Shown here piece by piece: positions 20,199-64,000 of a stretch of DNA of 64,000 bases (the first letter of the stretch is position 1; each line of letters starts with the position of its first letter). This DNA comes from an uncultured Gemmatimonadales bacterium. GTDB lineage: Bacteria; Gemmatimonadota; Gemmatimonadetes; Gemmatimonadales; GWC2-71-9. Location: the NCBI GenBank assembly GCA_963739455.1, contig CAVUAK010000001.1:1088001-1152000 (forward strand), read 5' to 3'. A program made the position numbers and the translations under genes. Under the pieces are notes generated by a model. That model was not told the origin of the DNA. It worked only from the letters and a program-made list of their open reading frames with translations, and did not search any database.

Positions 20199-20312
20199 GC
20201 CCGATAATTTCCACCTTCGGCACCGAGCTATCTCTTGCGCAGGGGGCGCTCGAGACCTCTAGTTTTGCGGCCCCGGATCACTCCGGGTGTGCTCTTATCG
20301 GGCGGTCAGTGG

Positions 20313-45739: not shown

Positions 45740-46303
45740 TCAGTACGGTCCGCGGCTCATGTGGCTCGCGCCGGCCGAACCCATGACCTCGCAGAAGGCG
45801 TCGGTTTCCGAATAAAGGACGCAGAACATGCCGTCCACCTGCCAGCGTTGCCACCACAGGAACATGATGCCGCGGTCGGCCCCGGAAAAATTCGGGTAGG
45901 GGTGCTCGCCATCGTATCGCGCGATGTGCGTGTGTACGGTGCCCATCCAGTTCGGTGGTCCGCAGGCATCGATCGAGCCCTGCGCCGAGACCCCGAGTGA
46001 ATCGGCATTCCCGCCCTCCAGCAGCATGACCCGCGTCACCCGCACGCTGTCCTCGCGGACCTCGCCAGCAATGCATGCAACATGTTCCCGCTTCTCCGCC
46101 GCGCTCTCGCTCCACAGGCGCCGGAGCAGGCCGCTGGCGTCGGCGCCGAAGCTGAAGCGTGCCGGGAGCTTCTGGAAGTCGGACTTGGGAACCGGGGGCA
46201 TCTGGTTCCCGCGCGGCTGCTGGTAGCCGGGCGCCGAGTCCTGGCCAGCGACGGCGGACACGGTGCCGAAGACCAGGAGGAGCAGGATGCCTGAACGACG
46301 CAG
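45740..46303 (-). CDS. Hypothetical exported protein with JAB/MPN (JAMM)-like motif; start uncertain
   Basis: In-frame signal-like RRSGILLLLVFGTVSAVAG upstream of the track ORF; REHVAC...GTVHTH...FSGAD. Confidence 0.6.
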   Translation of the reverse strand: MRRSGILLLLVFGTVSAVAGQDSAPGYQQPRGNQMPPVPKSDFQKLPARFSFGADASGLLRRLWSESAAEKREHVACIAGEVREDSVRVTRVMLLEGGNADSLGVSAQGSIDACGPPNWMGTVHTHIARYDGEHPYPNFSGADRGIMFLWWQRWQVDGMFCVLYSETDAFCEVMGSAGASHMSRGPY

Positions 46304-46365
46304 GGTAACCTCGCAGGAGCAGACTCCTGAAGGTTACCCTGTTTTCGTCCGGGTGGCCCGGCGCG

Positions 46366-47443
46366 TCAGGGGGCGGCGCCGATCGCGACGCCCCACGGCA
46401 CGCTTCCGACCGGGATGGTCTTTACGACCGTGAACGTCGCGAGGTCGATGACACTGACGTCGTTGGACGGACCGTTGGCGCTGTAGAGCTTGTTCCCGTC
46501 CTTCGAAAGCGCAATGCCCCACGGCCGCTTGCCCACGGCAACGGACTGCGAGACCTGGTTGGTCGCCACGTCAATGGCGCTCACCGTGCCACCCCGCCCG
46601 TTGCTCACGTAGAGGCGCTTCCCATCGGGTGCCGCCAGGATGGTCATCGGCTTGGAGCCCTCGGGCATCGTGATGGTTCCCGTCACCTTCTTCGTTGCGA
46701 CGTCGATCACCGAGACGGTGCCCGCACCCTCGTTCGCCGAGTAGGCCTTCGAGCCATCGGGCAGGAACGCAACGGTGCGGGGCCGCAAGCCTACGACCAC
46801 CCGACCGAGCAGCTTCCCCGATTCGGCGTCGAGGATCGTGATGTCATGATCGGTCTCGCCGCTTACCCAGACCGACTTGCCGTCGGGCGTGAGCGTGACG
46901 CCCTCGGGTTCCTTTCCAGTCGGCACCGTCGCGAGGATCTTCCCGGTGGCGATGTCGACGATGGATGCCACGCCCGCGTCTTCGTTCGAGACGTAGAGTC
47001 TTCGAGTCGTCGGCGGACAGGGTGAACGTCTCCGGGTCGGATCCACCCGGGAGCACGCGGCTCACCGTCCGGCTTGCGGCATCGACCACCGCCACCCCGT
47101 CCTTCGTCTTGTCGGAGCCGAGCTTTTCGCAGTCCTCGTCGGACATCGCCGGCGGGCACTTGGGCGAGCCGGTGAGTGCGACGAACACCTGCTTGCCGTC
47201 GCGGCTTGTCTTCACTCCACGGGGTCGGGTCCCAACGGGAATGGTGCCGATGACCGAGTCGTTGTCGACGTTGATGATGGTGAGGTCGTGCGAGTCCTCG
47301 TTGGTGACGTAGGCATACGCCGAGGGTGGCGGCGGCGGTGGCGGCGTTGCGGGGGTCGGTTGCGGCTTCTCGCCACACCCGAGGCCAAGGATGGTGCTGG
47401 CGGCGACAATGGCGCGGTAGCGCGCCGGGCGAGAATTCCTCAT
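46366..47443 (-). CDS. YVTN-type beta-propeller lipoprotein (PQQ-catabolism-associated type); frameshift near 47000
   Basis: LGLGC lipobox; repeats AYVTNEDS, LYVSNED, LYVSNG and LYSANG with VG.RP.G spacers. Confidence 0.85.
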
Positions 47444-47485
47444 GCTCTCCTTACGTCCCTGACGTCGGTTGTCACGATGCCGGTG

Positions 47486-48283
47486 CTACGGTGCGCTGAA
47501 TGTGGCCTTGTCGACGTTCCGGGCCTCGTCGAGGCCCTTCATCTGGTCGCGCCCCGTGATGCCGACGAAGATGGCCCCATCGACGTTGGACTTGTTGAAC
47601 TCCGCCCCGGTGACATCGGCGCCGGTGAAATCGGTGCTGGCCAGGTCGGCGTTCTGGAGGTTCGCGTTGACGAGCTTCGCCTTCCGCAGGGAAGCGAAGG
47701 AGAAATCGGCCTTGAAGAGGTTGGCGCCGGTGAAGTCGGCGCCTGTCAGGTCAGCGCTGACGAACTGCGCCCGCATGACGCCCATCGACTGGTTGCCGGG
47801 ATCGGCGCCGATGTTGGCATTGGCGAGGTTGGCGTCAACGAGAGTGGCGCCGCGCAGGTAGCCGATGATCCGCGTATCGCGCAGGTCGGCGCCATTGAGG
47901 TTGGCTTTCTCGATGATCGTGGCGAAGAGGCTCGCGCCGCGCAGGTCGGCCTTCGAGAGGTTGGCACGCCTGAGCGTGGTGCCGTCGAGGTTGGCCTTCT
48001 TCAGGTCGGCGCCCTCGAGCACGGCGTCGGTGAGGTCACAACTGAAGAAGTCGGAGCCCGCGAGCTTCGCCCCGGAGAAATTCGTGCCGGTGAGGATGGC
48101 GCGCTTGAAGTCGACGCCCTCGAGCACGATACCACTGAGGTCGGCGCCGGCGAGGTTGGCCGGCGCAGCATCAGTGGACTGCGCGAGACGCTCGGTGACC
48201 TGTGCGTTGGTGAGGCGCGGGGCCTGGGCAGTGGCCGCACTGGTGAGGGCCAGGAACGCGGCAGCCGCCACGGCGCCCCGCAT
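47486..48283 (-). CDS. Exported pentapeptide repeat protein
   Basis: Signal peptide ending ATA-Q followed by many A(D/N)LxG/xANL repeats. Confidence 0.9.
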   Translation of the reverse strand: MRGAVAAAAFLALTSAATAQAPRLTNAQVTERLAQSTDAAPANLAGADLSGIVLEGVDFKRAILTGTNFSGAKLAGSDFFSCDLTDAVLEGADLKKANLDGTTLRRANLSKADLRGASLFATIIEKANLNGADLRDTRIIGYLRGATLVDANLANANIGADPGNQSMGVMRAQFVSADLTGADFTGANLFKADFSFASLRKAKLVNANLQNADLASTDFTGADVTGAEFNKSNVDGAIFVGITGRDQMKGLDEARNVDKATFSAP

Positions 48284-48291
48284 GATGTGGC

Positions 48292-48765
48292 TCAGCCGTC
48301 GGCCTTGGCGGCCGGCCTGCCCGCCGCGACCTTGCCATCGGCGCGAAGCTTCAGGTAGACGTAGATGTTCTGGATCTTGTCCATTTCGAGGCCGAGCTGG
48401 CACCACGAGGGCATGCCCTTGTCGGGGCGCCCCTGGCACACGACCGTGATGAACGCCGCCTGGTCGGGAATGGTGCCACCGTCCTTGAGCGACACGATCA
48501 GCGCCGGCGCGAAGGAGGTGCCGACACCGTACTCGCCATGGCATCGGGAGCAGTTGAGCTCGAACTGCTTCCATCCCTGATAGGCGTTCTGGGGAATCGT
48601 GTCCCGGTGGCCCGCCTCGGTCGACTTGATGTAGGCGTTCCAGTTGACACTGTCCTGCGCCTCTGCGCGGACGGTGCCGATGATCGTGAGGGCCGCGATC
48701 ACGGCGATGGCGCGGGCGGCAAGGCGAATCGGCGAGCTGGTCATGCGGCTGACAGATCCTTTCAT
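48292..48765 (-). CDS. xoxG: Cytochrome c, probable XoxG-type electron acceptor
   Basis: Signal peptide, CSRCH, AP.L, GMP (Met ligand) and two extra Cys; directly follows xoxJ. Confidence 0.75.
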   Translation of the reverse strand: MKGSVSRMTSSPIRLAARAIAVIAALTIIGTVRAEAQDSVNWNAYIKSTEAGHRDTIPQNAYQGWKQFELNCSRCHGEYGVGTSFAPALIVSLKDGGTIPDQAAFITVVCQGRPDKGMPSWCQLGLEMDKIQNIYVYLKLRADGKVAAGRPAAKADG

Positions 48766-48769
48766 GGGT

Positions 48770-49630
48770 TCAATTGCCCTTTGCCGCGGGCGGCCCCGCG
48801 ACCTCCAGGGGCAGCAGCGGCACATTGTAGCTTTGCAAGATCTTCACCATGTCTCCACCGCGCGTGTCGATCACGGCCTGGAGACTGTCGCGGAACTTGG
48901 TGTCCCGCCGGCGGACACCCATTCCCATGCTGTAGACGAAGGGAATCCCCTGCACGGTGTCCTCGGCGACCCGCTGCATGACGAGTGGCACCTTGCTCTG
49001 CTGGACGAAGTACCCCGCGATCGGGCCCCACACAATCGCGACGTCGATGCTGTCCCCGAGGGCCTTGAAGATGTCGTCGGGGCGGTAGATGTCACTGTAG
49101 TTGGTCGGGAAGCCGACCAGGTTGCCCACCACACCGAACGAGCTCATGGCCATGGCCGGTGGGGTATTCTCGGCGTCCGAGTTGAGAATGTGCACCCCGA
49201 TGCGCAGGTGGCGGAAGGTGGTGTCCGCCAGCGACGAGAGATTGAGCCCGCTGTCCTTGCGGTACACGATGAAGTAGCCGGACCGGAAGTAGGGGCCGGT
49301 GACGCCGGCGATGTCGAGGCCGCTCGGTGCAGTGATGGCGACGTCGCAGTAACGGCCATTGAGCGCCCGGCTGAAGAACCCGCGCCGCACCGGCCACCAG
49401 GCGTACTCCACGCGCCATCCCCAGGTCTGCGCGATCAATTCTGCGATCTTGATCTCGTACCCCTCACCGGCCTGGTTGGAGGCAGGAAGGTTGTCGGGGT
49501 CGGCACACACGCGAAGCACTCCGGCTTCCCGGCCGGCCTTGAGCTGTGTGCTGTGCAGGGAGTCTTCCTGCGCGGCGGCGCTGCTGGCCGTGATGGCTAT
49601 GGCGACTAGGGTGACGATGCCGGTGCGCAT
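48770..49630 (-). CDS. xoxJ: MxaJ/XoxJ-type periplasmic binding protein
   Basis: LRVCADPDNLP, GYEIKIAELIA, GFF...L..CD, DVAIVWGPIAGYF and MGVRR motifs. Confidence 0.9.
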   Translation of the reverse strand: MRTGIVTLVAIAITASSAAAQEDSLHSTQLKAGREAGVLRVCADPDNLPASNQAGEGYEIKIAELIAQTWGWRVEYAWWPVRRGFFSRALNGRYCDVAITAPSGLDIAGVTGPYFRSGYFIVYRKDSGLNLSSLADTTFRHLRIGVHILNSDAENTPPAMAMSSFGVVGNLVGFPTNYSDIYRPDDIFKALGDSIDVAIVWGPIAGYFVQQSKVPLVMQRVAEDTVQGIPFVYSMGMGVRRRDTKFRDSLQAVIDTRGGDMVKILQSYNVPLLPLEVAGPPAAKGN

Positions 49631-49687
49631 GGAGCCCGACTCCTTGAGCGGCCAGGCGGAAGGTGCCCGGCGCGAGTAGGCAATAAT

Positions 49688-49794
49688 AACGAAGGCGCGG
49701 ACTGTTGGGGCAATGATACCCCGCAGCCGGCGCCTTCGTTTTGAAGCCTGTCAGACTGCACCGTGGGAGCCCGGCCGAAGCCGGACTCTCACGG
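49688..49794 (-). terminator. Two tandem hairpins between xoxF and xoxJ
   Basis: A 15-bp stem with C(UUCG)G loop (49761-49794), then AACGAAGGCGC...GCGCCTTCGTT (49688-49740) followed by ATTATT on the minus strand. Confidence 0.6.
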
Positions 49795-49803
49795 ATGGAG
49801 CAT

Positions 49804-51648
49804 TTAGAGCGAGAACACGGTCAGCACGCCGCCCTGCGTCGAGAACTGCGCGGCGTCGCCGAAGGCGCCGAGCGCGCCGAGACCGGCGGTCGGATCTTCA
49901 GCGCCGATGCCCGCGGCCACGCCGATGCCAGCCCAGCCACCGATGCCCGAGAGCACGGCGACATACTGCTTGCCATCAGGCGCAACGTAGGTCATCGGGT
50001 TGCCGATGATGCCCGACGGGGTCTTGAACTGCCAGAGGACCTTGCCGGACTTCTGATCGACAGCCTTGAGCCAGCCTTCCATGGTGCCGTAGAAGGCGAT
50101 GCCGCCGGCGGTGGTCAGTGCGCCACCGTAGGCTGCGAGCGGCTCCTTGATCTCCCACACCGTGGACGCCGCGCGGTCCTTACCGGCCGTCGGATCCCAA
50201 GCGAGGAACCGGCCACGGAACCCGCCCGGGCCAGGGAACATGCGGACGATCGCGCCAACGTACGGCTGACCGGCCGTGTACTTCACCTCTACGCCCTCGT
50301 AGTCCATGCAGATGTGGTTCGTGGGGACGTAGAACAGGCCGGTGATCGGCGAGTACGCAGCAGGCTGCTGGTCCTTGAAGCCGATTGCGGCCGGGCAGAT
50401 GCCCTCGGTGTTCTTCTTCGCGGTGGTACCAAACCGCGGATCCTTCTGCGGGATACCAGTCGCCAGGTCGACCTTGGTCGCCCAGTTGACCGGGCCGTAG
50501 GGCTCGGCCTTCGTGAGCTTGCCGTTGGTGCGGTCGATCGTGTAGGCGAAGCCGTTACGGTCGAAGTGCTGGAGCAGCTTCTGACCGCCCTTGTCGAACA
50601 GGATGTTCTCGTTGACGCCGTCGTAATCCCACTCGTCGTGCGGCGTCATCTGGTAGGCCCAGGCCACCGTACCATCAGCCGGGTGGCGCGCGAAAATGGT
50701 CATGGACCACTTGTTGTCGCCAGGCCGCTGGTCGGGGTTCCACGAGCCCGGGTTACCCACGCTGTAGTAGAAGAGGTCGAGCTCTGGGTCGTAGGAGTAC
50801 CAGCCCCAGGTCGTGCCGCCGCCGATCTTCCACTCGTTGCCCGTCCACGTGGTAACGCCGAGGTCCTTGCCCTTGTGCGAGGCATAGTTGGCGTTGCCGA
50901 CACCGTTCACGATGCCGACTTCGTCATCCGGACCGGTGCTGTACTTGGTCCAAATGTTCTTGCCGGTGTTCACGTCGAACGCGGTCACGCGACCACGGAC
51001 GCCGAACTCACCGCCAGAGATGCCGGCCATGACCATGTCCTTGATCACGATCGGGGCGTTCGTCATCGTGGCGCCCTGCTTGTAGCCGTTCGCCTCGACG
51101 CCGGCGTTGGACTTATCCGGGTGCTTCGACTTCCAGAGTTCCTTGCCCGTCTTCGCATCAAGAGCCAGCAGCTCGCCCTGCAGCAGCTGAATGAAGATCT
51201 TGCCGCTCTTGTGGTAGGCGGTGCCACGGTTCACCAGGTCGCAGCACGCGATAGGAATCGCGTCCGGGGACTGGTTCGGCGTGTACTGCCAGATGATCGG
51301 CGCGCCCGGCTTGGAAAGATCAAGCGCGTAGACCTTGTTCGGGAACGAGGTGTGCACGTACATCACGTTCCCGATGACGAGCGGGTTGCCCTCGTGACCG
51401 CGAAGGGTGCCGGTGGAGAAGCTCCAGGCCGCCTTCAGGTTTGCCACGTTGGCAGTCGTGATCTGCTTGAGCGGGCTGAACCGCGACAAGCCGTAATCAC
51501 GGCCCGTCATGACCCACTCGCCCTCAGCGGCGCCATAGGTCCACGCCCCTGTGCGGGCCGCCGCCTGGGCGTTGGCGGACGCGACGGCGAAAACGAGCAT
51601 GCTCGCCGCAATACCGCCAGATATCACCTTCTGGCTTCTACGGTTCAT
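49804..51648 (-). CDS. xoxF: Lanthanide-dependent PQQ methanol dehydrogenase
   Basis: Signal peptide, STGTLRGHEG, ACCDLVNRG, ISGGEFGVRG, GNPG, RPGDNKWSMT, HDEWDYDGVNE (extra Ln-binding Asp) and GIGGWAG; GAAGAGG RBS; no mxaI present. Confidence 0.93.
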   Translation of the reverse strand: MNRRSQKVISGGIAASMLVFAVASANAQAAARTGAWTYGAAEGEWVMTGRDYGLSRFSPLKQITTANVANLKAAWSFSTGTLRGHEGNPLVIGNVMYVHTSFPNKVYALDLSKPGAPIIWQYTPNQSPDAIPIACCDLVNRGTAYHKSGKIFIQLLQGELLALDAKTGKELWKSKHPDKSNAGVEANGYKQGATMTNAPIVIKDMVMAGISGGEFGVRGRVTAFDVNTGKNIWTKYSTGPDDEVGIVNGVGNANYASHKGKDLGVTTWTGNEWKIGGGTTWGWYSYDPELDLFYYSVGNPGSWNPDQRPGDNKWSMTIFARHPADGTVAWAYQMTPHDEWDYDGVNENILFDKGGQKLLQHFDRNGFAYTIDRTNGKLTKAEPYGPVNWATKVDLATGIPQKDPRFGTTAKKNTEGICPAAIGFKDQQPAAYSPITGLFYVPTNHICMDYEGVEVKYTAGQPYVGAIVRMFPGPGGFRGRFLAWDPTAGKDRAASTVWEIKEPLAAYGGALTTAGGIAFYGTMEGWLKAVDQKSGKVLWQFKTPSGIIGNPMTYVAPDGKQYVAVLSGIGGWAGIGVAAGIGAEDPTAGLGALGAFGDAAQFSTQGGVLTVFSL

Positions 51649-52002
51649 ACTGACCTCTTCATAAAGGGTGACTTCCACTGCACCACCGCACTGCGGGACC
51701 GACACCGCGCATCCGGACGGACGCGCGGTGAGACTGTAACCGCGCGCGACGAAGCCGCGCGGTGCATGTGACGGGAACTGGCGTTCAGCGTATGAAGGAC
51801 ATCGCTCGCGCTGGAGTGGGTCGGCGAGCCGGGCAACTGGGGGGCGGAACAATCGAGAAGGGTATTCGTATTGGGATCGGCGCACCGCCAGCGCATGGAG
51901 CGCCATGACGAGATCCCGCGCCAAGCAGGACGCCGGCGATTCAGGGACCGAATATTTGATGGATTCGTCATGAGAGTGCCTGGTTGTGCCATGATCCTCT
52001 AC

Positions 52003-52030
52003 AGGATACGCCCCCACCAGCCGATGTCAA
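52003..52030 (-). promoter_or_regulatory. Sigma70-like promoter for the xox operon
   Basis: TTGACA-16 nt-TATCCT on the minus strand, about 350 nt upstream of xoxF. Confidence 0.55.
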
Positions 52031-52180
52031 CAACCGGTGCGGATTGCCCCTAAGTCGGGCGCTGCCAAATGCCTAACGCTTCGATTCCCGTAACGTGAGC
52101 GTGGAGGCCGACCGTACGCCCTGAGATGTTTCGGAGGTTGCATCCTGAGGCGCCTAGAATACGGCGTGAACCCGGTGCTG

Positions 52181-53158
52181 TCAATCTGTTGAGGCGCCGC
52201 GTGTCAGGAGTTGTACCACCGCGCCCCGGTTTGCGAAAGCTCCAGACACCACCAAACCACCCGTTCCCACCTGCTCCCTTGCCACCGCCGCCAGGCGGTC
52301 GGCGTCTCCATCACTGCCTGCCAAGCCGTAAACTGCCGGTCCCCAGGAGCTCTGGCCCACCCCCGCCGCCCCGCTTTCACGGAAGCGTGCAATGAGCTGC
52401 GCGGTGGGGCCGGGGGCGAAAGGACCCCCTTGGCTGGCCGCGAACCACTGACCGGTGACGTGCTGCACTTCGGCCAGTGCCGTCCCGAAGTCGGGCAGGT
52501 CTTCCTCGACGAGCGCAGGCAACAGTTGCATCAGAACGAGGTGGGCGATGTGTTCCACCTCACGTTCGGGTGGTGCCGGGAGGGTACGAAACGCCTCCGC
52601 CTCGGCATCACCACTCAATCCGGGGCTGCTGGCCGGTACCGCCAGCACGCAGCGCCATGACTCCGGCATCGGGAGCCGGGTGAGCAGCGGGGCCAGCCCG
52701 GCGCCTTCCCGCCGCCCGCCCTCAAGCACGAAGCCGCCCCGTTCAAAGAGCCACGTGCCGACGCCCGATCGTGCACCGCGACTGACCTGCCGGGCCAGCG
52801 TGGCCGCGTCGTGAGGCTGGCCGTACAGCTCTGCCAGGGCGCGCGCCACACTGAGGGCCAGCTGGGTGCCGGAGCCCAGGCCACTGTGGGCGGGCATCGC
52901 CTGTGTAATCCGGATGCGCGCCCCCCCAGGTAACCCTGACGCGTCGCCGTATCTCCGGGCGAAGCCAAGCGCGCGTTCGGCGTCCGGCCCGGTGGCGAAG
53001 TAGCCATCGGCCCGCTCGGCCTCGAGCTCGAGCGCCGGCGACGGCACGGCGGCACCCATTCCGCCAAAGCGCCGGCCAAGCATGCCGCGAAGGTCAAGCA
53101 CGCCGAAATGGAGGCGCGCTGGCGCGCGCACCCGGACCCGCTCCACCGGCACGCTCAT
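52181..53158 (-). CDS. mptG: Beta-ribofuranosylaminobenzene 5'-phosphate (RFAP) synthase
   Basis: APARLHFG.LD, H.GLGSGTQL, RG.RSG.G, GGF..EGG and GQSSWGP GHMP-like motifs. Confidence 0.92.
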   Translation of the reverse strand: MSVPVERVRVRAPARLHFGVLDLRGMLGRRFGGMGAAVPSPALELEAERADGYFATGPDAERALGFARRYGDASGLPGGARIRITQAMPAHSGLGSGTQLALSVARALAELYGQPHDAATLARQVSRGARSGVGTWLFERGGFVLEGGRREGAGLAPLLTRLPMPESWRCVLAVPASSPGLSGDAEAEAFRTLPAPPEREVEHIAHLVLMQLLPALVEEDLPDFGTALAEVQHVTGQWFAASQGGPFAPGPTAQLIARFRESGAAGVGQSSWGPAVYGLAGSDGDADRLAAVAREQVGTGGLVVSGAFANRGAVVQLLTRGASTD

Positions 53159-53732
53159 CCGGGTACGGCCTGCGTTGCGGGGTGTGCCGCCACGTACTCG
53201 TTGAGCAGGGCCCACGCCTCCTGCTCCCTGGTCCCGGCGGTCTTGTCGATCAGGACCTGGAGTCGAGTCGAGTTCCTCGCGCACCTGCGCGGGCGGGAGC
53301 AGGTGCAGCCGGGTCGACAGGATGGCGGCCTCAAGTACCGCATGCTTCGCGCGGTTGAAGCCGATGAACTCGCGCCCCCGCCCCCGATGCAGCACGCGGG
53401 CGTCGATGCGCGAGCGAGGCGGGGTGTCGTCGATTGTCTCTACCTCGAGTTCGTGCCAGGAGCAGGCTGCCTCCAGGACGGCCCCGCGGACATGCTCGGC
53501 CGGACGCCAGGGGAACTGCGGACTGCCGATGGCGGCCTGGGCGAATAGCAGGACATCGTCGATGAGGTTGAACACCGCGTGCCCATGCGCAGAGAGATTG
53601 CGGAACGTCGTCGTCTGGAGGAACGGCTTCAGCACCAGGCGTTCGCTCGCCCCACTCCACGCCCATCGGCGCAAAGTTGACCTGCCCCGCGCCGTCCTGC
53701 GTGGTGACGATGCCCTCCACGATCATCGGCAA
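53155..53732 (-). CDS. DUF447 family protein (H4MPT cluster orf19-like); two frameshifts
   Basis: IVEGIVTT...NFAPMG, LKPF..TTTFRNL, FNRAKHAVLEAAIL.TRL and IDKTAG..E.EAW motifs. Confidence 0.85.
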
Positions 53733-55591
53733 CTACTGGCCGGCTCCCAGCACCGGCAGGTCGATGTACGACGGATACCGGCCGTTTCGGTAGACGCGAT
53801 GCGTCGCCGCGCGGAAGTCACCAGGCGCGGCCTCGAAGATGTTGGGCACGAAGGTCTGCGGATTCCGGTCGTAGGCGGGGAACCAGGTACTCTGCACCTG
53901 CACCATGATCCGGTGCCCCTTCCGGAAGGTGTAGCTCTGCTGGCGCAGGTCGACCACGTACTCGTTGATGGCGTTGGGCACGATCGGCCGCGCGCGCTCG
54001 AAACCCTGGCGGTAGCGCCCGCGAAGGATCTCGCTCGCAACCATGAACTGGTAGCCGCCCAGGACCGGTCCATTGATGATGCTGTCGGGGAAGACGTCGA
54101 TCAGCTTCGTCGACCCAGTCGGCGTCGCTGCCGGTGGTCGAGGCAAAGAGGTGTGCGGCGATGTCGCCGCCGATGGTGACATCCTCGGTGAGCGGTTCAG
54201 TGCGCCAGACGAGGATATCGGGGCGACCGTCGACGAATCGCTGGTCCTCGTAGAGCCAGGGTCGCCAGTGTGAACCCCGGGGGTCGTAGGTCAGCTCGAT
54301 GGGCCGCTTGCGGTAGGGAATCGGGTGCGCCGGATCGGAGACATAGCTGTCGTACATCGACGCCTTCGCCTCTCGCGAGGTGGGCGGATCGAACGACAGC
54401 TGGCCCCCGGCGCGGAAGTAGAGCTTCCGCGACGTGCCCTCCTTCGCCGGCCAGCTGTCGAAGCGACGCCACCGGTTGCTGCCGCTCTCGAACAGCGTCG
54501 CCTCGGCGAGGTCGAGCTTCCCCTTTCCCTTGAGCCAGAACGCGAACCAGGGCGCCTGGATCTCCTCCCGGAAGTACTTCCCCGTGGCGCTGCCGAAATC
54601 GATGTCCCCGACCTTCTGGCCGTCGCCCCGCGACCAGCTGCCGTGGTACCACGGACCCATGACCAGGAAGTTCCGGTTGTTCCGGTCGAGGCGCTCCAGT
54701 GCGGCGTAGGTGGTGATAGCGCCGAAGAAGTCCTCCTGGTCCCACCAGCCGCCGACCACGAGGGTCGGAACGGCGACTTCCGTGAGCCAGGTCGTGAGCG
54801 CCCGGCTCTTCCAGAAATCGTCGTACGCCGGGTGCTGGCTGAAGTTGGTCCAGCTCGGGGAGCGCCCCGCGAGCAGCTTCGTCAGGTTGGCGAGCGATCC
54901 CTGGGCGAGGTACCAGCTGTAGGTGTCGTAGAAGCTGACCGGCGGCGGCACGGACTGGTCATTGGAGAGTTCGAGGTCGGTGGCGTACTCGAAGCCGTAG
55001 CTGAGGCGGAATGCGCCGTTGTGGAAGAAGTCGTCGCCCTTCCAGGTGTCCGTCATCGGCGCCTGCGGGGAGATCGCCTTGAGCGCTGGATGCGGGTGGA
55101 TGCCGGCCATCGCGGCGAGCCAGCCGGGATACGAAATGCCCAGCACGCCCACCGCGCCGTTGTTCGATGGCACGTTGGCGAGGAGCCACGCGATCGTGTC
55201 GTAGGTGTCGGTGCTCTCGTCGACGCCCTGGGGATCCTTCGGGTCGTGCAGCGGCCGGTTCATGACGAACTTCCCCTCTGACCCGAACCGACCGCGAATG
55301 TCCTGGTAGACGAAGATGTACTGCTCTCGCGCGAGCTCCGCGTACGATCCCTTCGCCTCCAGGCCACCACCCGATCCCTCGATACCATAGGGCGTGCGCG
55401 TCAGCAGGAACGGCAGTGCCGTGGTCCCTGTCGCCGGTGTGTAGATGCGCGTGTTGAGCCTGACGCCGTCGCGCATCGGGATCATGACCTGCTGCTCGCG
55501 GTACGCGGGGAGAGAGTCTCCCTGTGCAGCGAGTCCCGTCGGCGTGCCGAGGGCGAGGACGACAAGCGACAGCGATCAGGTACGCGCGCAT
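53733..55591 (-). CDS. Exported CocE/NonD family serine hydrolase (alpha-amino acid ester hydrolase-like); frameshifts near 55560 and 54112
   Basis: Signal peptide; [45 protein letters not shown] and [13 protein letters not shown] motifs. Confidence 0.9.
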
Positions 55592-55609
55592 TGGTTCTCC
55601 AGGGTGTCG

Positions 55610-56267
55610 TCAACCGTGATACCATGTCGGGGCCGGCTCCTCCGCCGGCACCGCATCGGCACTGCCGCCGTCGGCTGACGCGGGCAGCGCACTCACCGGC
55701 CGGTCGGGGCCGAAGAGGAAGCGCGCCAGCATGCGATATCCGTGGCGCGTGAGCACCGACTCGGGGTGGAACTGGACGCCATGCACCGGGTGCTCGAGCA
55801 TGCCGGACCCCCATGATCTCGCCGTCATCCGACACCGCGTTCACCACAAGCCCGGCGGGCACCGACTCGGGCGCGATGACCAGCGAGTGATAGCGGGTCG
55901 CCACCAGCGGCGACGGAAGGCCGGCGAACACGCCGGTGCCGTCGTGCGCGATCCGGGAGGTCTTCCCGTGCATCGGTCGCGTGGCGCGGACGATCTGGCC
56001 GCCGTAGGCGGCGCCGATGGCCTGGTGACCGAGGCACACGCCGAGGATGGGGATCTGCGGCCCCGAAGCGCCGGATCAGGTCCACGGAAATCCCTGCCTC
56101 GGCAGGCGAGCACGGCCCGGGTGAGATGATGATGTGTGATGGACGGAGCCTCGCCACCTCGTCGAGCGTGACGGCATCGTTCCGGCGTACAACCGGCTCC
56201 TCACCCAGCTCGGCCACATACCGCGCCAGGTTGTAGACGAACGAGTCGTAGTTGTCGATGAGGAGGA

Positions 56268-56271
<4 letters not shown>
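55610..56271 (-). CDS. pabA: Aminodeoxychorismate synthase component II (glutamine amidotransferase); two frameshifts
   Basis: [30 protein letters not shown] and GVQFHPES motifs. Confidence 0.88.
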
Positions 56272-57744
<1,473 letters not shown>

Positions 57745-57748
<4 letters not shown>

Positions 57749-59162
57749 TGCCGCGTCCTCCCGGCGGGCGGAGCGCTGGGTCAGCTTCACGTGCTCCGAG
57801 CGCACGTCATCGGGCGGCGTGAGGTAGCCCCACTGCAGCGAACCCTCCTGCCGGTACGTCTTGCCCAAGCGTGATGGCGAGCTTCGCCTTCATCAGTTCC
57901 TTGCCCAGGTAGAAGGCGTGGGTTGCCTCGTCGACGCCGAGCTGGCTGAAGATCTCCTGGATATCGGTGCCGCGGACGAAGCGCTCCCGGTTGAACACGG
58001 TGATGGTGTCCCGGTCGGTGAAGATCCGGAAATTGGGATCGGTGACCTGGCCCTGCAGTTCGCGCAGCTCGGCCTCGGTGTACTCGAGGATGCGGGGATC
58101 CTTCACCGTGACGAGCCGGTCGTCCACCCGCTTGGGGACCGTCTTCTGGCTCACGGCGTAGTGCATGAGGCGGCGGGCGACGTCGATCTCCCGGACGGAA
58201 CCGCGAGCCCAGGGAATGACCTCCGTGGTCAGCACGGCGCGGACGCCCACCTCCTCGCAGATCGCGATGAGCAGCGCGTTCATGCCGGTCGTGTCCGCGG
58301 CGGTGAGCTCGGTGATGTTCCCGATGCCCATCATCTGCGGCACGGTCGGGCCAGCGACGATGCGCCTCGGCGTAGCGCTCGAGCGACGCCATGAAGCCGA
58401 ACCCGATCGGCTCGACGATCGGGTCGATGAGGTACTTCACGCGCCACCGCTCGAGTTGCTCGAGGCTGCGCTCCAGCTCGGCGAACTGCTCGCCGGCGTC
58501 GGGAATGATGACGAAGCGCTTGTCGCTGCCGGCATATCGTTCCGCGACCTCGATGTTGCTGCTGTTCACGCTCAGCACCATCTCGGCCCCGGCGTCGAGC
58601 GCGGTGCTGATCTCCCCGGCATCGAAGGAGTCGATGCTCACGCGGAAGCCGGCGTCCGCGAGCTCGCGCACGACACTCGCCGAGCTCGGGGAACGGGCGC
58701 CCCGGCGTACAGCCGACGTCGATGACGTCGGCACCGCTCGCGCGGTAGTACTCCGCGAGGGCGCGCAGCGCCGGCCGCTCCATCTTCGGCGCGTTGTTGA
58801 TCTCGGCCAGGATCTCGATCTGCCAGGCGCCGTAGTCGGCGCCCCGCGCGGCGCGGCCGAAATACTGGGGAATCTCGCGCAGGTCCTTCGGCCCCTTCTC
58901 AACGGGAAGGCCGAGTCGAGTCGCCAGGATCGCGGCGTCGCCCTCGCACAAGCCCGGGGATCATGACGAGGTCGGTGCCATCAGGCGGGCACGAGTCACC
59001 TGCCGCGCGATCCACGTCGGTGGTCATCAGCGCCGCCACCGTGATTCGCATGACCGCGACATCCCACGCGAACGGCAGCTCCTGCTGCGCCAGGACGCGA
59101 CGCAGCGACGGCTCGGCGAGCTTGCCGGTGACGAACAGGACCCTGGTGGGAGCGGCCTGCAC
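57745..59162 (-). CDS. Dihydropteroate synthase-like protein of H4MPT biosynthesis (orf20-like); several frameshifts, 3' end uncertain
   Basis: LFVTGKLAEPSL, VAALMT, GPKDLREIP.YFG, EINNAP, GADVIDVG, VSIDS, DPIVEPIGFG, MMGIGNITELT, LTTEV and HAFYLGKEL.KA motifs. Confidence 0.85.
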
Positions 59163-59164
59163 CT

Positions 59165-59530
59165 CTACTTCGGGTCCCCGCTGCGGACCCACTTGTTCGG
59201 CGTTCCCTCGAGGCCGGGGAAGCCGGTGGCCGGTCGCCACAGCACCACCTCCTCGATTTTCTTCGCGAGCTCGAAGTCCTTGTCGGTGATGCCGCCGGCG
59301 CTGTGCGTCTGCAGCTTCACCGTGAGCCGTGCCCACGTCACCGTGAGGTCAGGGTGGTGGTACGCCGCTTCGGCGACGTAGCCAACGGTATTGACCAGCA
59401 TGAGCGTCGCCTGCCAGCCATCGGTCTTGTAGACGCGACGGATCCAGCCGTTCTCATAGTACCAGCCCGGCATCGTCGCCAGCTTCTCGGCAATTTGCTG
59501 CTCAGTGTAGATCGGTTCCTTCGTCGCCAT
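59165..59530 (-). CDS. Pterin-4a-carbinolamine dehydratase
   Basis: AEAAYHHPDL, THSAGGITDKDFELA and the C1-cluster-type tail VLWRP...LEGTP. Confidence 0.92.
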   Translation of the reverse strand: MATKEPIYTEQQIAEKLATMPGWYYENGWIRRVYKTDGWQATLMLVNTVGYVAEAAYHHPDLTVTWARLTVKLQTHSAGGITDKDFELAKKIEEVVLWRPATGFPGLEGTPNKWVRSGDPK

Positions 59531-59557
59531 GTCGCCTCCTGGGTTGCCTCGACGTCC

Positions 59558-60334
59558 TCACGTCACCACCCCACCGTTGACCAGCAGCGCCTGCCCGGTC
59601 ACGAACGCGGCCGCGTCGGATGCGAGGTACACCGCAGCCTGTGCCACGTCCTCCGGGGTACCCCAGCGGCCGAGCGGGGTGACCCGCTCGACATGCGCCC
59701 GCCACTCCGCGCTGGCCTGGTCACCGAACGCGGTGTCAATGAAACCAGGTGCGATCACGTTGACGCGGATCGACGGAGCAACCTCCAGCGCGAGCGACCG
59801 GCTGAAGGCGTGGATGCCGCCCTTCGCGGCAGCATAGATGACCGGGTTCTCGCCCGCCATTCCGGTCAGTACGTGATCCCACGACATGTTGATGATGACT
59901 CCGGCACGACGACGGGCGCGGAAGAAATCCACCGCCGCCCACGAGGCCAGCACGGTGCCGCGCAGGTCCACGTTCAGCACGGCATCGAGCTTCTGCTCGC
60001 GCGTCATCGACTTCCCCTCGCCGGTGAGGATGTCGGCTCCGGCGTTGTTCACCCACGCGTCGAGTCCGTCGATGCGCTCGGCGAGTTCGTTGACCAGCTT
60101 CTTCAGGGAGTCAGGCTGGGCCAGATCGAGCGGAAAGACCTGGACCGTTCCGCCCGCGTCGCTGATGGAGCGCGCGGTTGCCTCGGCCCCTTCCCGATTA
60201 CGCCTGTAAGTTATTGCCAGCAAAGCACCTGCGCGCGCGGCTGCGACTGCGATTGCGCGCCCGATGCCGCTCGAGGCACCGGTAACGAGCATCGTCTTGT
60301 TGCGAAGCGCGGGGGACGGACTGGTTGTCGTCAC
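59558..60334 (-). CDS. Short-chain dehydrogenase/reductase, probably NADP(H)-dependent
   Basis: TGASSGIG, YRRN, NNAG, YAAAK, RVNVIAPG and VTGQ..VNGG motifs. Confidence 0.9.
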   Translation of the reverse strand: MTTTSPSPALRNKTMLVTGASSGIGRAIAVAAARAGALLAITYRRNREGAEATARSISDAGGTVQVFPLDLAQPDSLKKLVNELAERIDGLDAWVNNAGADILTGEGKSMTREQKLDAVLNVDLRGTVLASWAAVDFFRARRRAGVIINMSWDHVLTGMAGENPVIYAAAKGGIHAFSRSLALEVAPSIRVNVIAPGFIDTAFGDQASAEWRAHVERVTPLGRWGTPEDVAQAAVYLASDAAAFVTGQALLVNGGVVT

Positions 60335-60383
60335 GTAGGTGCTTGAACCCTGGTCGGCGGTGAGGCAGGGAAAACATACCCGC

Positions 60384-60398
60384 TAGAATTGGTGCATG
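60384..60398 (+). promoter_or_regulatory. Possible -10 box for a leaderless mfnB transcript
   Basis: TAGAAT 6 nt before the ATG at 60396; no SD sequence. Confidence 0.35.
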
Positions 60399-61135
60399 CG
60401 ACTGCTGGTAAGCGTGCGCGACGCCGACGAAGCCCGGGCAGCCCTCGCGGGCGGCGCAGACATCATTGATGCGAAGGAGCCGGCACTCGGGCCCCTGGCA
60501 CCGGTCGCGGGCCCCGACCTCAGGGCCATCTGTGCCGCCGTGCCGCTCACGATCCCGCTGAGTGTGGCGCTTGGGGACGCGCAACCGGGTGACCTGGGTG
60601 ACATCGTCTCGGTCGGTGGGCCCGCTGCAGCGCAGGTCGAGCCTGTTCTTCAAGGCGGCGATCATGTCGGACTCGCCCGAGGATGCAGCGCGAGGGATCA
60701 GCGCCGCCTGCCGCCTGCTCGAACAGCGGGCAGATCGTCCCGTGCTCGTGGTGGCGCGATATGTCGACGCCCCGTCGGGTGCGGATGACCTTCACCGCTG
60801 GGTGGAAGTGTGTGCTGCGGCGGGGGCCGGTGGATTGCTGCTCGATACCAGCTGGAAGGATGGGACCTGGCCTCTTCGGGTTCGTTGACGTGCAGGCACT
60901 GGCCTCACTGCGCCGGCAGGCCACGCGTCATGGGACATGGCTCGCCGTTGCGGGTGGCGTTGCCGACAGGAACTTGCAGCAGCTCGCGCAGGTTCGGCCG
61001 CACATCGTTGGTGTTCGAGGTGCGGTCTGTGAGGGTGGCCGGGCGGGGAAGCTTTCGTGTGAGCGCGTGCGACTGCTGCACAGCGCCCTCGCAGACCTCA
61101 CCCGGCGTACACGGCCTCGAGCGCAGCCGGTGTAG
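60396..61135 (+). CDS. mfnB: (5-formylfuran-3-yl)methyl phosphate synthase (orf22/DUF556-like); two frameshifts
   Basis: LLVSVRD..EA..AL.GGADIIDAKEP..GPL, SVALGD, LLDT..K, AGG and GVRGAVC...R motifs. Confidence 0.88.
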
Positions 61136-61659
61136 CGACGGAGACCTTGAGCCCCGCCGAACAGGCGGCGGCGAAACCCGGGTCGACCAGTCCCGTCCAA
61201 TGGTCCGTCGCCTGCTTGACCAGGATCAGTTCACTGGCGCCGATCTCGCTCGCAATGAACGCGGCAATGCTGTCGCTCGTGATGTCCCAGGAGTGCGGCA
61301 GGGCGTCAGTGGCACGCATCCAGGCATAGGGGGCGAGCACCGGGATCTTCCCGGCATCGTGTGCCGTCGCCACGTCATCCTGGTGATGAATGAGCCTCGC
61401 ACCCTCGAGCTCCTCCACGATCAGGTGCGCGACCTGGTCCATCGCGAGGATCGCCATCCAGTGGGCAACATCGTCGGAGAATCCCTGCGCGCGCTGCGCC
61501 AGCCGGACCTGGTCGGCGAAGGCGCCGCCCCCGGGGACGACGAGGATCGAGCGGCGCTTCGCCAGATCGACCGATGGCCTGAAGCGCCTGGCGCCGGGTG
61601 TCGGCATCACGGCAGGCTGCCCCACCGAGCTTGACGACGGTGATCGGCACCTCAGTCAT
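61098..61659 (-). CDS. mfnE: Amino acid kinase family protein of methanofuran biosynthesis (orf21-like); frameshifted near the 5' end
   Basis: VVKLGG, VPGGGAFADQVR, AHWMAILAMDQ, LPHSWDITSDSIAA and LVDPGF motifs. Confidence 0.85.
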
Positions 61660-62662
61660 CCTGCGCCTCAAGGAGCCGAGCCACCGCGACCGCTGGCGCT
61701 GCGCGACTGGTGACGGCATTCCAGGCACCGTCCATCGCGACGAGGGTGAGGCCGGCTTCGCGGGCGGCAGCGGCCGCGATTGGCGCACCAAGGCCCAGCA
61801 CGGCTGCGCCGGTCGAGCCGCTGGGTGACGCGAACGGACCTGCCGGATGGCGGCGGCGATGCCGCTCACCTGTGCCGCTCGCCACGTGAGACGCCAGCGC
61901 AGTGATGCCGGCGTCGTCCATCATTGACCGATCGGCGCACACGACGCGCGCCAGTCGTTCGCCGGCGCGGTCCCGGTTGGCCGGATGCCCGCTCGCACCG
62001 TCGCTGGATGCCTCCTGCGGCAGCGTGCCGAGCCAGCAATGCACGTCCGCGGTGTGGGCGAAGTTGTCGGCGGACACGAGTGCCGTGTCGCCGCGCCACG
62101 GGACTCGGCGCACGAGCGCCTCGACCGGGGTCCGGAGCGCGCCACTGTAGACGAGCTCGCCGCTGGCGAGTCGGTCGGGATCGGTTCGACCGAGCGCCAG
62201 TACCCGACCGGCCGAGATGGGAATGATGTCGGTGGTCGTCGTGCCCATGTCGAGCAGGATGACGTCACGATGCTCGGTGGCCACGACCATGGCGGTGGCC
62301 ATCCAGTTCGAGGCAGCGACCTCGATCGGCGTGGATCGCGCTTCGGCGGGTGACCGGAAGTGACCTTCGGTATCGAGCACGTGGAGGCGCGCGCCGGGGA
62401 AGGCGCGCTCGAGGGCGTCGAGCACGAAGGTGACGCCCTCCGCCTTGGACCGAAAGCGCTGGGAAAGTTCCGCGGTCATGGTGACGGCGTGATTCCCGGC
62501 GCCAGCGCCAATGTCCCGGCCGATGCGCTCGAGCACCGAGTGGAGCTGGTCGGCATCGTGCTCGATCGAGAACGGCACCGTCATCGCCTGGACGGCTCCA
62601 CCAGCGGCAATGCGCGCCACCTTCACGTTGACGCCACCGATATCCCAGCCAATGGAACTCAT
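61652..62662 (-). CDS. mfnF: Hydantoinase/oxoprolinase-like methanofuran biosynthesis protein (orf9-like); local frameshifts near 61800-61870
   Basis: GWDIGGVNVK, AVTMTAELS..F..K.EGV, AASNW, DMGTTTTDIIP, GELVYSG.LRT, RLARVVCAD and APAVAVA motifs. Confidence 0.88.
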   Translation of the reverse strand: MSSIGWDIGGVNVKVARIAAGGAVQAMTVPFSIEHDADQLHSVLERIGRDIGAGAGNHAVTMTAELSQRFRSKAEGVTFVLDALERAFPGARLHVLDTEGHFRSPAEARSTPIEVAASNWMATAMVVATEHRDVILLDMGTTTTDIIPISAGRVLALGRTDPDRLASGELVYSGALRTPVEALVRRVPWRGDTALVSADNFAHTADVHCWLGTLPQEASSDGASGHPANRDRAGERLARVVCADRSMMDDAGITALASHVASGTGERHRRRHPAGPFASPSGSTGAAVLGLGAPIAAAAAREAGLTLVAMDGAWNAVTSRAAPAVAVARLLEAQDD

Positions 62663-63413
62663 ACCGGTCCTCGATCTCGCGCGTGGTGTCGCGGTGCATG
62701 CCATCGGCGGGGATCGCTCACGCTACGAGCCGGTCCAGTCGGTGCTCGCACCGGGTCGTGATGGTGATGCGCTGGCGCTGGCGCGGGCGTATCGCTCACT
62801 GCCAGCGGTGAAGCGTTGCTATGTCGCCGACCTCGATGCCATCGGTGGCGCACCGGCGCAGCTCGAGCTCCTGCTCAAGCTTCAGTCGGCCGAGGGCTTC
62901 GGGGGTGTGTTGCTGCTCGATGCCGGGATCGGTTCGCTCGACGAGCTCGAGCGCCTCGGCGGGGCGTTCGAGCACGTTGTCGTCGGGCTCGAGACGCTCT
63001 CCTCGTTTACCGGCCTGACGAGGCTGGCCGCGCAGGTTGACGTGACGTTCAGCCTGGACCTGAGGAACGGCGTTCCGCTCGCGCGACCGGAGCTGCAGGC
63101 GGAAGCGGGGTCGGTCGACGCGATCTCCCTGGCGCGTGCTGCGGTCGAGGCCGGGGCCCGGTCGCTCATCCTGCTTGATGTCGGCCGAGTGGGGCGAGGC
63201 GTCGGCGTGAACCTTGAGTTGCTCGCGTCGCTCCGCCGGGCGCTGCCGCAGGTGGTGCTACTGGCCGGTGGCGGGGTGAGGGGCGACGCGGACATCGATG
63301 CGCTGGCCGGGGGTGGATGCGACGGCGTGCTCGTGGCGACCGCACTGCACCGGGGCACGCTGACTGGACCGGCCGGCCCGCCCGGTCAGTCGGGCGCGAG
63401 CGAGGTGCGATAG
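62652..63413 (+). CDS. HisA/HisF-related TIM barrel protein (H4MPT/MFR cluster orf17-like)
   Basis: IPVLDL..G.AVHA..GDR..Y.P, YVADLDAI, DAG, GLET, SLDL, LLDV.RVG...G, GGGVR and VATALH.G motifs. Confidence 0.88.
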   Translation: MELIPVLDLARGVAVHAIGGDRSRYEPVQSVLAPGRDGDALALARAYRSLPAVKRCYVADLDAIGGAPAQLELLLKLQSAEGFGGVLLLDAGIGSLDELERLGGAFEHVVVGLETLSSFTGLTRLAAQVDVTFSLDLRNGVPLARPELQAEAGSVDAISLARAAVEAGARSLILLDVGRVGRGVGVNLELLASLRRALPQVVLLAGGGVRGDADIDALAGGGCDGVLVATALHRGTLTGPAGPPGQSGASEVR

Positions 63414-63889
63414 GTGGCCGACTGGCCGAAGTTCTCCTCCACCTCGAGTTCGAGCAGCGTGAGGTGGGTATAGCCTTCCTTCTCCAGCTCTGCGCGGAGC
63501 CGCAGCGCAAGGAACTGCGCCAGCATCTCGGCGGTGGAGTTCTGGATCGGGAGCAGCGCGCAGTCGGACACCGGGAACACGTAGGTCGGCTTGCCGAAGT
63601 AGTCGACGTGGAGCATGTCGCCCACGGTACGGTACGCCAGCTTCGGGTTCTGCGTGGGCAGGAGCACCTTGTGGTCGATCTCGTCGGCCAGTGAGCGCGC
63701 AATCCGCTTGAGCACGCTGAAATCGAGCACGAAGAGGCACTCCTCATCGATGCCCCCCTCGACCATGACCCCGACGCGGTAGTTGTGCCCGTGAAGTGAC
63801 TCGCACTGATGACCGCGGAAGGTGATGAAATGTGCCGAGGCAAACACCAGGTAGTCCTTGCTCACCTTCACGCTGAAGCTGCTCTGCAC
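63386..63889 (-). CDS. 6-pyruvoyl-tetrahydropterin synthase (COG0720/QueD) family protein
   Basis: FASAHFI, CESLHGHNY, LDF..LK, DHK, NSTAE and VEE motifs; AAGGAG RBS before the GTG at 63889. Confidence 0.9.
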   Translation of the reverse strand: MQSSFSVKVSKDYLVFASAHFITFRGHQCESLHGHNYRVGVMVEGGIDEECLFVLDFSVLKRIARSLADEIDHKVLLPTQNPKLAYRTVGDMLHVDYFGKPTYVFPVSDCALLPIQNSTAEMLAQFLALRLRAELEKEGYTHLTLLELEVEENFGQSATYRTSLAPD

Positions 63890-63914
63890 GCCCTCTCCTT
63901 GGCTCACTGCATCC

Positions 63915-64000
63915 TCAACCGACACGAATTCCCCGCTCAATAATAACGACGAACAGGGCCGCGGCGGTGAGGTCGGCGGTTGTTCCGGGATTGCGCCGAT
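63915..64000 (-). CDS. C-terminus of a CitG-like (triphosphoribosyl-dephospho-CoA synthase family, orf7-like) protein, partial
   Basis: Manual translation RRNPGTTADLTAAALFVVIIERGIRVG* contains the NPGTTADL motif. Confidence 0.75.
   Translation of the reverse strand, partial: RRNPGTTADLTAAALFVVIIERGIRVG

Follow-up and report, generated by a model that had tools for sequence, protein, structure and literature searches.

A window of 64,000 nucleotides from an uncultured Gemmatimonadales genome (G000:C1:1088001-1152000, the whole stretch of DNA analysed here) ends in a one-carbon (C1) gene cluster, in which putative lanthanide-type methanol dehydrogenase (xox) genes adjoin genes for synthesis of the carriers tetrahydromethanopterin (H4MPT) and methylofuran. 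The assembly that carries the window, G000, comprises 3.6 Mb in four contigs and is 83.7% complete, with 0.44% contamination. For window positions 45740-64000, a listing of open reading frames (ORFs) and scans with Pfam and NCBIfam/TIGR models (curated cut-offs are quoted as score/cut-off) recovered the genes named in a first-pass annotation of this DNA, in the order it had given. A same-genus genome that is 97% complete, G006, was the reference. An Rfam search of the same range gave no match. The features are:

45740-46261, minus strand: small JAB-like protein of Gemmatimonadota, without Pfam or NCBIfam match; its Atlas neighbours are Gemmatimonadota hypothetical proteins
46301-46341, minus strand: inverted repeat 3' of the YVTN gene, read in the sequence
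46366-47443, minus strand: YVTN beta-propeller protein of the type associated with catabolism of pyrroloquinoline quinone (PQQ) (TIGR02276 over cut-off; TIGR03866 in two pieces), with a +1 frameshift at 46998
47486-48283, minus strand: pentapeptide-repeat accessory protein (PF00805, E 1e-44)
48292-48744, minus strand: xoxG-like c-type cytochrome with CSRCH motif (PF13442; TIGR03874 under cut-off)
48770-49630, minus strand: xoxJ (TIGR03871, 231.5/212.15 bits)
49804-51648, minus strand: xoxF, intact, 614 aa (TIGR03075, 637/480 bits)
52184-52156 and 52030-52003, minus strand: two sigma-70-like sites between mptG and xoxF, each with 10/12 consensus matches
52181-53158, minus strand: mptG, beta-RFA-P synthase (TIGR00144, 166.5/113.5), 80% identical to that of G006 over 320 aa in one frame
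53155-53726, minus strand: orf19 (DUF447; PF04289, PF20766), two frameshifts, in three frames
53733-55566, minus strand: secreted CocE/NonD hydrolase of the alpha-amino-acid ester hydrolase type (TIGR00976), one frameshift
55610-56271, minus strand: pabA, its GATase domain in two ORFs, two frameshifts
56268-57748, minus strand: pabB (PF04715, PF00425), many single-base insertions
57755-59141, minus strand: orf20, dihydropteroate-synthase-like (TIGR00284 in pieces; DUF6513), four frameshifts, in five frames
59165-59530, minus strand: pcbD, pterin-4a-carbinolamine dehydratase (PF01329, E 1e-27; NF002017 over cut-off)
59558-60334, minus strand: cluster-specific short-chain dehydrogenase/reductase (SDR) with a SWD...[YF]xxxK site, a candidate pterin reductase
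60396-61135, plus strand: mfnB (orf22; NF002573-5 in pieces), two frameshifts, in three frames relative to G003
61098-61659, minus strand: mfnE (orf21)-like kinase (PF00696; NF040622 at E 1e-20, under cut-off), one frameshift near the start
61652-62662, minus strand: mfnF-type protein, Orf9 in the naming of PMC8141765 (TIGR03123, 266.6/244.1)
62652-63413, plus strand: orf17, HisA/HisF-like (PF00977; TIGR00734 at E 1e-33, under cut-off)
63386-63889, minus strand: COG0720 PTPS with CESLHGH motif, PTPS-I/III hybrid type (PF01242)
63924-64000, minus strand: 3' end of orf7 (CitG-like), frameshifted and crossing the window edge

The protein encoded by xoxF resembles XoxF more than MxaF. Among solved structures it scores highest with 4mae, 6oc5 and 6dam (697, 684 and 653 bits), whereas MxaF chains reach at most 597 bits; 7o6z, which we take to be a further XoxF-type chain, scores 561 bits. 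Alignment to 4mae places the vicinal cysteines at Cys135-Cys136, with Glu214 (GGEFG, 212), Asn299 (GNPG, 298) and Asp341-Tyr-Asp343 (WDYDG, 340-344), so that the DYD site read at the first pass stands. The lanthanide enzymes 4mae, 6oc5 and 6dam have the same sites, and like them the gene adjoins xoxJ and a cytochrome c gene. With these partners and a PQQ source in the genome (below), the predicted activity of XoxF is a PQQ- and lanthanide-dependent conversion of methanol to formaldehyde. In a FastTree phylogeny of 74 proteins it belongs to a 33-row clade (30 Gemmatimonadota, one Acidobacteriota, one 'delta proteobacterium' and the window protein itself) apart from all 39 Pseudomonadota rows, with a support of 99; the scores with 4mae and 6oc5 are close, and the tree had no references labelled by XoxF1-5 clade. 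The XoxF of soil Gemmatimonadetes described by Butterfield et al. (2016, PMC5103831) was likewise called a new clade. The gene order is F-J-G, unlike the F-G-J order of most proteobacterial loci seen. A second XoxF-like gene, with a D-F-D site and 52% identical to that of the window, lies on another contig (G000:C3:119289-121378, L169) with an adjacent cytochrome c gene and no H4MPT genes seen nearby.

Linkage of xoxF to carrier synthesis is characteristic of the closest relatives of this enzyme. Where XoxF shares 65% identity or more, 36 loci were found, four of them too short to judge; of the 32 informative ones, 28 have mptG immediately upstream of xoxF. Among the 44 more distant loci found, 42 were informative and none has this arrangement. 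The two sigma-70-like sites in the interval compare with 1.0 +/- 1.1 in shuffled sequences, and among 12 genomes, this one included, both occur in seven, one in one and none in four. Because both promoter-like sites are kept in seven of the 12, the xox genes likely have their own transcript. The inverted repeat at 46301-46341, absent from the terminator scan list, could form its end, and the JAB-like ORF, which is patchily present among relatives and for which one Atlas neighbour set was 76% Prok-JAB, would probably lie outside it. A role of the pentapeptide protein as a Qnr protein or effector was discarded, as all such models scored far under cut-off. Near-identical xoxF pieces occur in contigs of four sequencing runs (three of them RNA libraries); these were not counted as expression because contigs reveal neither transcription nor habitat nor the true sequence of this strain. 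No run contained half of the words sampled from this DNA (best share 0.20).

Upstream of xoxF, profile scans identified a carrier biosynthesis set of mptG, orf19, orf20, orf5, orf7, orf17 and mfnB/E/F; orf5 is equated with MyfB and orf9 with MfnF in PMC8141765. In G006, orf20 is intact (462 aa), and an apparent 497-aa DUF447-MptG fusion ORF in the window is an artefact of a +1 shift. The CocE/NonD hydrolase between pabA and orf19, left unnamed at the first pass, is optional, occurring in 15 of 40 stretches that show both of those genes (genome duplicates are possible). The closest structures to its G006 orthologue are 4pf1 and 1mpx (550 and 543 bits, against 212 for cocaine esterase). Apart from its position, nothing supports a role as a dedicated methanol-releasing esterase, given this patchiness and the greater similarity to alpha-amino-acid ester hydrolases.

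The cluster runs past the window edge, as the first-pass annotation had noted. The next ~12 kb hold orf5, an EthD-like gene, mch, fhcC, fhcD, fhcA, fhcB, an ATP-grasp gene, DUF1464, mtd and fae, which brings the total to ~30 kb, ending at G000:C1:1163722 (locus L001). The single pqqC match and the mch and fhcA matches all lie outside the window, in line with that annotation, which had listed pqq, mch and fhc as absent from the window. The formaldehyde pathway set (fae, mtd, mch, fhcABCD) is thus present, split by frameshifts in G000 except for fae and fhcD, and intact in G006 and G010. Elsewhere in the genome are an FdsGBAD-type formate dehydrogenase, ftfL, folD, glyA, gcvP, folE, folK and folP, and ~530 kb away lie the PQQ genes (pqqB, pqqC and pqqD over cut-off, pqqE partial, and a pqqA-like EVTAY peptide). 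The description of the cluster as a self-contained module is overstated: p-aminobenzoate and pterin genes are local, but PQQ synthesis, formate dehydrogenase, folE, folK and the assimilation genes are encoded elsewhere. Three genes of the extension deserve mention in their own right: the DUF1464 gene between mtd and the ATP-grasp gene (L001:11176-12225), which is kept even where fhc is lost; the two-domain EthD-like protein directly after mch, with a lipoprotein-like N-terminus by eye (L001:3662-4430; L019:15559-16326); and a conserved gene of ~260 aa (L001:14219-15007) that matches no known family and lies upstream of fae in this genus, possibly a regulator.

We consider it quite probable that the locus is an inherited Gemmatimonadales one-carbon cluster that combines XoxF methanol oxidation with adjacent carrier synthesis and formaldehyde-to-formate oxidation. 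The genes for the pathway steps are present, and their chemistry is assigned here from protein families. By analogy with solved XoxF, the enzyme would pass electrons from methanol oxidation to XoxG, with XoxJ in an assisting role. Fae, Mtd, Mch and FhcABCD would then carry formaldehyde to formate, which the FdsGBAD-type dehydrogenase could oxidise to CO2, or which FtfL and FolD could convert to methylene-tetrahydrofolate for the serine cycle. There, FtfL, FolD and GlyA together with the products of a gck-sga-mcl-mtkAB-hpr-ppc cluster would fix C1 units into acetyl-CoA. On the biosynthetic side, PabAB and MptG would make the aminobenzene arm of the carrier, FolE, PTPS-III and FolK likely yield the pterin pyrophosphate without FolB, and Orf20 would join the pterin to the aminobenzene arm. 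The last reduction may be carried out by the SDR, and this is the weakest step.

The cluster is a lineage trait of Gemmatimonadales and not a recent island, the term used at the first pass, because its composition is ordinary, its flanks are syntenic and its distribution spans the phylum. The GC content is 0.677, and the tetranucleotide distance stands at the 60th percentile among 115 windows of the genome; neither atypical composition nor strain-specific presence was found. Among 41 related genomes mch occurs in 16 (10 of the 11 of the same genus; the other 25 are mch-negative), and in a phylum-wide set it occurs in 64 of 301. Cluster order is kept in same-genus and same-family genomes, with intact genes in G006 and G010, and flanking genes are syntenic within the genus. 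The first-pass assignment to Gemmatimonadota is borne out by the XoxF tree and by the closest XoxF loci in named genomes, which are titled Gemmatimonadales or Gemmatimonadota. Its two reservations, that the contig might be proteobacterial or chimeric and that the genome might lack the C1 transfer enzymes and any PQQ source, do not apply: the contig is not proteobacterial, and mch, mtd, fae, fhc and pqqBCDE are present. Recent horizontal import from Proteobacteria, or a chimeric contig, is accordingly very improbable. Sub-modules of the cluster do move, and G003, G004 and G023 carry a proteobacterial-type FhcA, but composition, flanks and the low contamination all speak against import, and in the trees XoxF and the cluster-type FhcA of the genus each group with Gemmatimonadota, separately from the proteobacterial proteins.

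Several observations weigh against an inherited, functioning methanol-oxidation cluster. XoxF enzymes also oxidise other alcohols and formaldehyde. The ATP-grasp_3 gene of the cluster, a candidate for the MfnD or MyfA glutamate ligase, matches the MfnD model weakly (E 6e-7, against 7e-18 for a separate gene in G003), and no known dihydromethanopterin reductase was found in the genomes scanned (see below). In a genome of this completeness, the absence of isocitrate lyase and Ccr rests on a genus-wide pattern, 11 same-genus genomes also being without a match. If the G000 sequence is taken at face value, none of mtd, mch, fhcA/B/C, orf20, pabAB, mcl and ftfL is intact. In addition, the density of frameshifts relative to G006 is higher in the cluster region (12 of 31 genes; 0.74/kb) than in the background (60 of 261 genes; 0.32/kb), with only two of 20 background loci higher. 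These rates come from that comparison, as the DNA-level background count was inflated in three loci, probably by non-orthologous matches.

The frameshifts, which affect nine genes in the range (those for the YVTN protein and CocE hydrolase, orf19, pabA, pabB, orf20, mfnB, mfnE and orf7), had passed unnoticed before. If they were real, this strain would be losing its H4MPT/methylofuran branch and keeping only xoxFJG. In line with such decay, frameshifts affect 14 of 24 compared cluster genes but spare xoxF, xoxJ and xoxG, the shift density of the cluster is ~2.3 times that of the background, and the related genomes G001, G003 and G004 delete parts of the cluster. Yet the shifts are genome-wide, with ftfL, mcl and queC elsewhere also split and about a quarter of compared G000 genes frameshifted, mostly by +1. 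At the DNA level, 31 cluster events are of the +1 type and four of the -1 type, with one in-frame stop in 14.2 kb. The dN/dS ratio is not raised, at 0.108 in the 14 shifted and 0.089 in the 10 intact cluster genes (background 0.126 and 0.102). A further genome, G007 (60% complete), also has a split mch, and short-read contigs of relatives, which represent other strains, lack the extra base at 46998, 53645, 55797, 56863 and 56980. Given the genome-wide occurrence, the +1 bias, the unchanged dN/dS and the intact relatives, the frameshifts are most likely consensus errors of sequencing or assembly; the higher density in the cluster leaves a small probability for recent decay, which we regard as unlikely. 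Caution is due for any other result that depends on split genes of this assembly.

An alternative role for an intact cluster would be mainly formaldehyde detoxification, for example after demethylation of plant compounds, with XoxF as an accessory alcohol or aldehyde oxidase. According to PMC5020050, H4MPT genes are present in numerous taxa that are not known to be methylotrophic; moreover, the xox genes have promoter-like sites of their own, and the genome holds several other PQQ enzymes. Against this stand the tight mptG-xoxF linkage across the clade and the serine-cycle Mcl, which tracks mch: an Mcl-like gene occurs in 15 of 16 mch-positive but only four of 25 mch-negative relatives. The lowest dS values of the cluster, in xoxF (0.32) and fae (0.25), are also what would be expected of highly expressed genes. 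We therefore consider detoxification an improbable main function and retain methanol oxidation.

The assimilation genes lie on a further contig, in a gck-sga-mcl-mtkA-mtkB-hpr-ppc cluster (G000:C2:199282-208295, L147), and with glyA, ftfL and folD complete the serine-cycle gene set. MtkA exceeds its cut-off, and G006 has an intact Mcl that matches the malyl-CoA lyase 5ugr with 401 bits; sga, hpr and gck are named by family and context, their scores being under curated cut-offs, and mcl and ftfL are split in G000. Unless glyoxylate is regenerated, a serine cycle gives acetyl-CoA and no net C3 or C4 compounds. Neither the isocitrate lyase nor the ethylmalonyl-CoA route for this regeneration was found: Ccr was over cut-off in 0 of 41 genomes, and no isocitrate lyase was found in the 12 genomes of the genus, whereas one of 16 mch-positive relatives had it. 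With neither enzyme found, methanol is likely a supplementary energy and co-carbon source beside organic substrates rather than a sole carbon source. A true serine-cycle methylotroph growing on methanol alone would need an unrecognised supply of glyoxylate or glycine, for which reverse glycine cleavage is a candidate. The complete serine-cycle cluster, the MtkA and Mcl scores, the presence of FtfL, FolD, GlyA and GcvP, and the methylotrophy inferred for Gemmatimonadetes by Butterfield et al. (PMC5103831) all favour such growth. Set against the missing Ccr and isocitrate lyase, and against POR_N and RuBisCO-family matches that occur in one of five genus genomes each and not in G000, it seems possible and less plausible than mixotrophic use. 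A motif scan for rbcL, hps, mxaI, lanM, PFOR and malate synthase, a weak test, found none.

The PTPS of the cluster looks like a PTPS-III that bypasses FolB. All 18 orthologues spanning the site (two truncated rows were dropped) carry a CE[S/A/T/P]LHGH motif, and CExxHGH is the motif of PTPS-I/III hybrids (PMC5041015). Among solved structures it matches 1y13, 3lze and 2a0s best (E ~1e-21), whereas QueD-type chains reach no better than 1e-9. These three, which we take to be Plasmodium PTPS-III, carry ETLHGH. FolB was found in none of 16 mch-positive relatives, as against 15 of 25 mch-negative ones, and in none of five further mch-positive genomes; kinship confounds this comparison. The location within a bacterial methanopterin cluster differs from what the accessible text of PMC5041015 describes, which ties PTPS-III to H4MPT only in some Archaea. 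Both queC and queE are present in the genome, whose two other PTPS paralogues are without a QueD motif, so the PTPS of the cluster may serve methanopterin, folate and queuosine synthesis. Elsewhere on the same contig, a gene with a PTPS-II motif, folE and another SDR gene stand in a row (G000:C1:1844793-1846433, L168) that resembles a biopterin-type pathway.

The SDR is a further non-canonical member of the cluster. Known dihydromethanopterin reductases are DmrA and AfpA/DmrB (PMC6193120). No genome in sets of 41 and five exceeded the cut-off of the AfpA/DmrB model TIGR02699, and the DHFR model PF00186 matched in 0 of five and one of five (marginally, 25.1 bits); no DmrA-specific model was used, and paralogues of the RibD_C type exist in the genomes. 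The SDR forms a discrete subfamily in 65 of 301 phylum genomes, comprising 62 of the 64 that are mch-positive and three of the 237 that are mch-negative. In a metagenome survey (80 loci kept from 586), an H4MPT or furan gene lies near it in 71 of 80 loci, and pcbD is beside it in 63 of 64 with enough downstream DNA. It still adjoins fae and orf20 in differently ordered clusters, and in its site Trp138, Asp139 and Lys157 are invariant, with the catalytic Tyr replaced by Phe in nine of 15 rows. One such differently ordered H4MPT cluster reads fae-SDR-pcbD-orf20-mtd-DUF1464 and includes an MptA-type GTP cyclohydrolase (L235:353-8449; also L231, L239 and L249).

Based on the co-occurrence with mch, the pcbD/fae/orf20 neighbourhood, the unusual SWD...[YF]xxxK site and the lack of a recognised Dmr, we tentatively propose that the SDR represents a third dihydromethanopterin reductase family, dependent on NAD(P)H; with the PTPS-I/III hybrid it would define a distinct Gemmatimonadota route to methanopterin that maybe also serves folate and queuosine. 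This role is doubtful on several counts: linked genes co-occur anyway, and profile and fold searches, the latter with a predicted model (pLDDT, a model confidence score, of 86.6), rank FabG and glucose dehydrogenases, not pteridine reductases, first. With 142 bits for the pteridine reductase model NF006598 and 187 for FabG, an identity as a PTR1/FolM-type pteridine reductase is unsupported. A plasmid search gave no close relative at E 1e-40, and Atlas neighbours were generic SDR clusters only. No paper linking dihydromethanopterin reductase with a short-chain dehydrogenase was found in a search that left out most subscription papers, so that unpublished status is not shown.

The layout of the cluster has been known since 2016. 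Butterfield et al. (PMC5103831) reported it in soil Gemmatimonadetes, with proteome detection, and inferred methylotrophy; the arrangement in their Fig. S3 already includes the PTPS, SDR, pterin dehydratase, pabAB, pentapeptide and YVTN genes. According to the text labels of that figure, partly garbled, the order is fae, mtdB, two hypotheticals, fhcB, A, D, C, mch, alpha/beta barrel, two ATP/phosphorylation proteins, PTPS, hisA/F, THMPT (H4MPT) biosynthesis protein, kinase, hypothetical, SDR, pterin dehydratase, hypothetical, pabB, amidotransferase, hypothetical, RFAP synthase, methanol dehydrogenase, methanol oxidation protein, pentapeptide and YVTN. The order here is the same, with the carrier genes immediately upstream of xoxF, and L053, from a genome named in their Fig. 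S4, shows it in sequence; the XoxF of the window is ~70% identical to that of L053. Relative to the published contig, the genus adds the CocE/NonD hydrolase between pabA and orf19 and the JAB-like gene, and the published genome table has a column for isocitrate lyase, which was not found here. XoxF has been reported as common in Gemmatimonadetes (PMC6784897; PMC10875860), and PMC9874027 cites Butterfield et al.; the accessible text of PMC5020050 makes no mention of Gemmatimonadetes.

Compared with the H4MPT clusters of Methylorubrum extorquens and other Proteobacteria, as described in PMC8141765, PMC6193120 and PMC5020050, the cluster shares fae, mtd, mch, fhcABCD, mptG and orf5/MyfB, as well as orf7, orf17, orf19, orf20 and the MfnB/E/F homologues. 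It differs in that neither DmrA/DHFR nor AfpA/DmrB was found, in the additional PTPS-I/III, SDR, DUF1464 and EthD-like genes, and in directly adjoining xoxF, which is not the case in the 42 informative distant loci.

Close relatives vary in the methylofuran/Fhc half. The ATP-grasp gene, fhcBADC, orf5 and mfnF are gone from the clusters of G003 (L025-L026, L162, L163) and G004 (L159, L164, L165), which have two Fhc sets elsewhere, one whose FhcA groups with proteobacterial ones and one with an FwdD-like gene. With fhcA elsewhere in both, we rejected the notion that they run H4MPT without Fhc. In G023 a proteobacterial-type fhc set stands in place (L150-L151), and in G001 fhc is gone from the cluster, with no fhcA found in the 90% complete assembly. 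The FhcD tree was a quick version only. In close relatives, then, this half of the cluster is exchangeable. At lower coordinates of the window is a c-di-GMP-I riboswitch match (20216-20303, minus strand; 47.5 bits, gathering 35) upstream of a 119-aa ORF.

Judged by this cluster, about one in five of the Gemmatimonadota genomes sampled (64/301) likely belongs to a lanthanide-dependent methanol consumer, an idea that goes back to 2016. To this the present analysis adds a genus with a serine cycle for which no known glyoxylate regeneration route was found, and candidate enzymes for two unfilled steps of methanopterin synthesis in bacteria, namely the one that bypasses FolB and the last reduction. 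Planctomycetes, for example, are without a recognised Afp (PMC5020050). If the SDR does replace dmrA, it may hint at what to seek in lineages that have no recognised Afp or DmrA.

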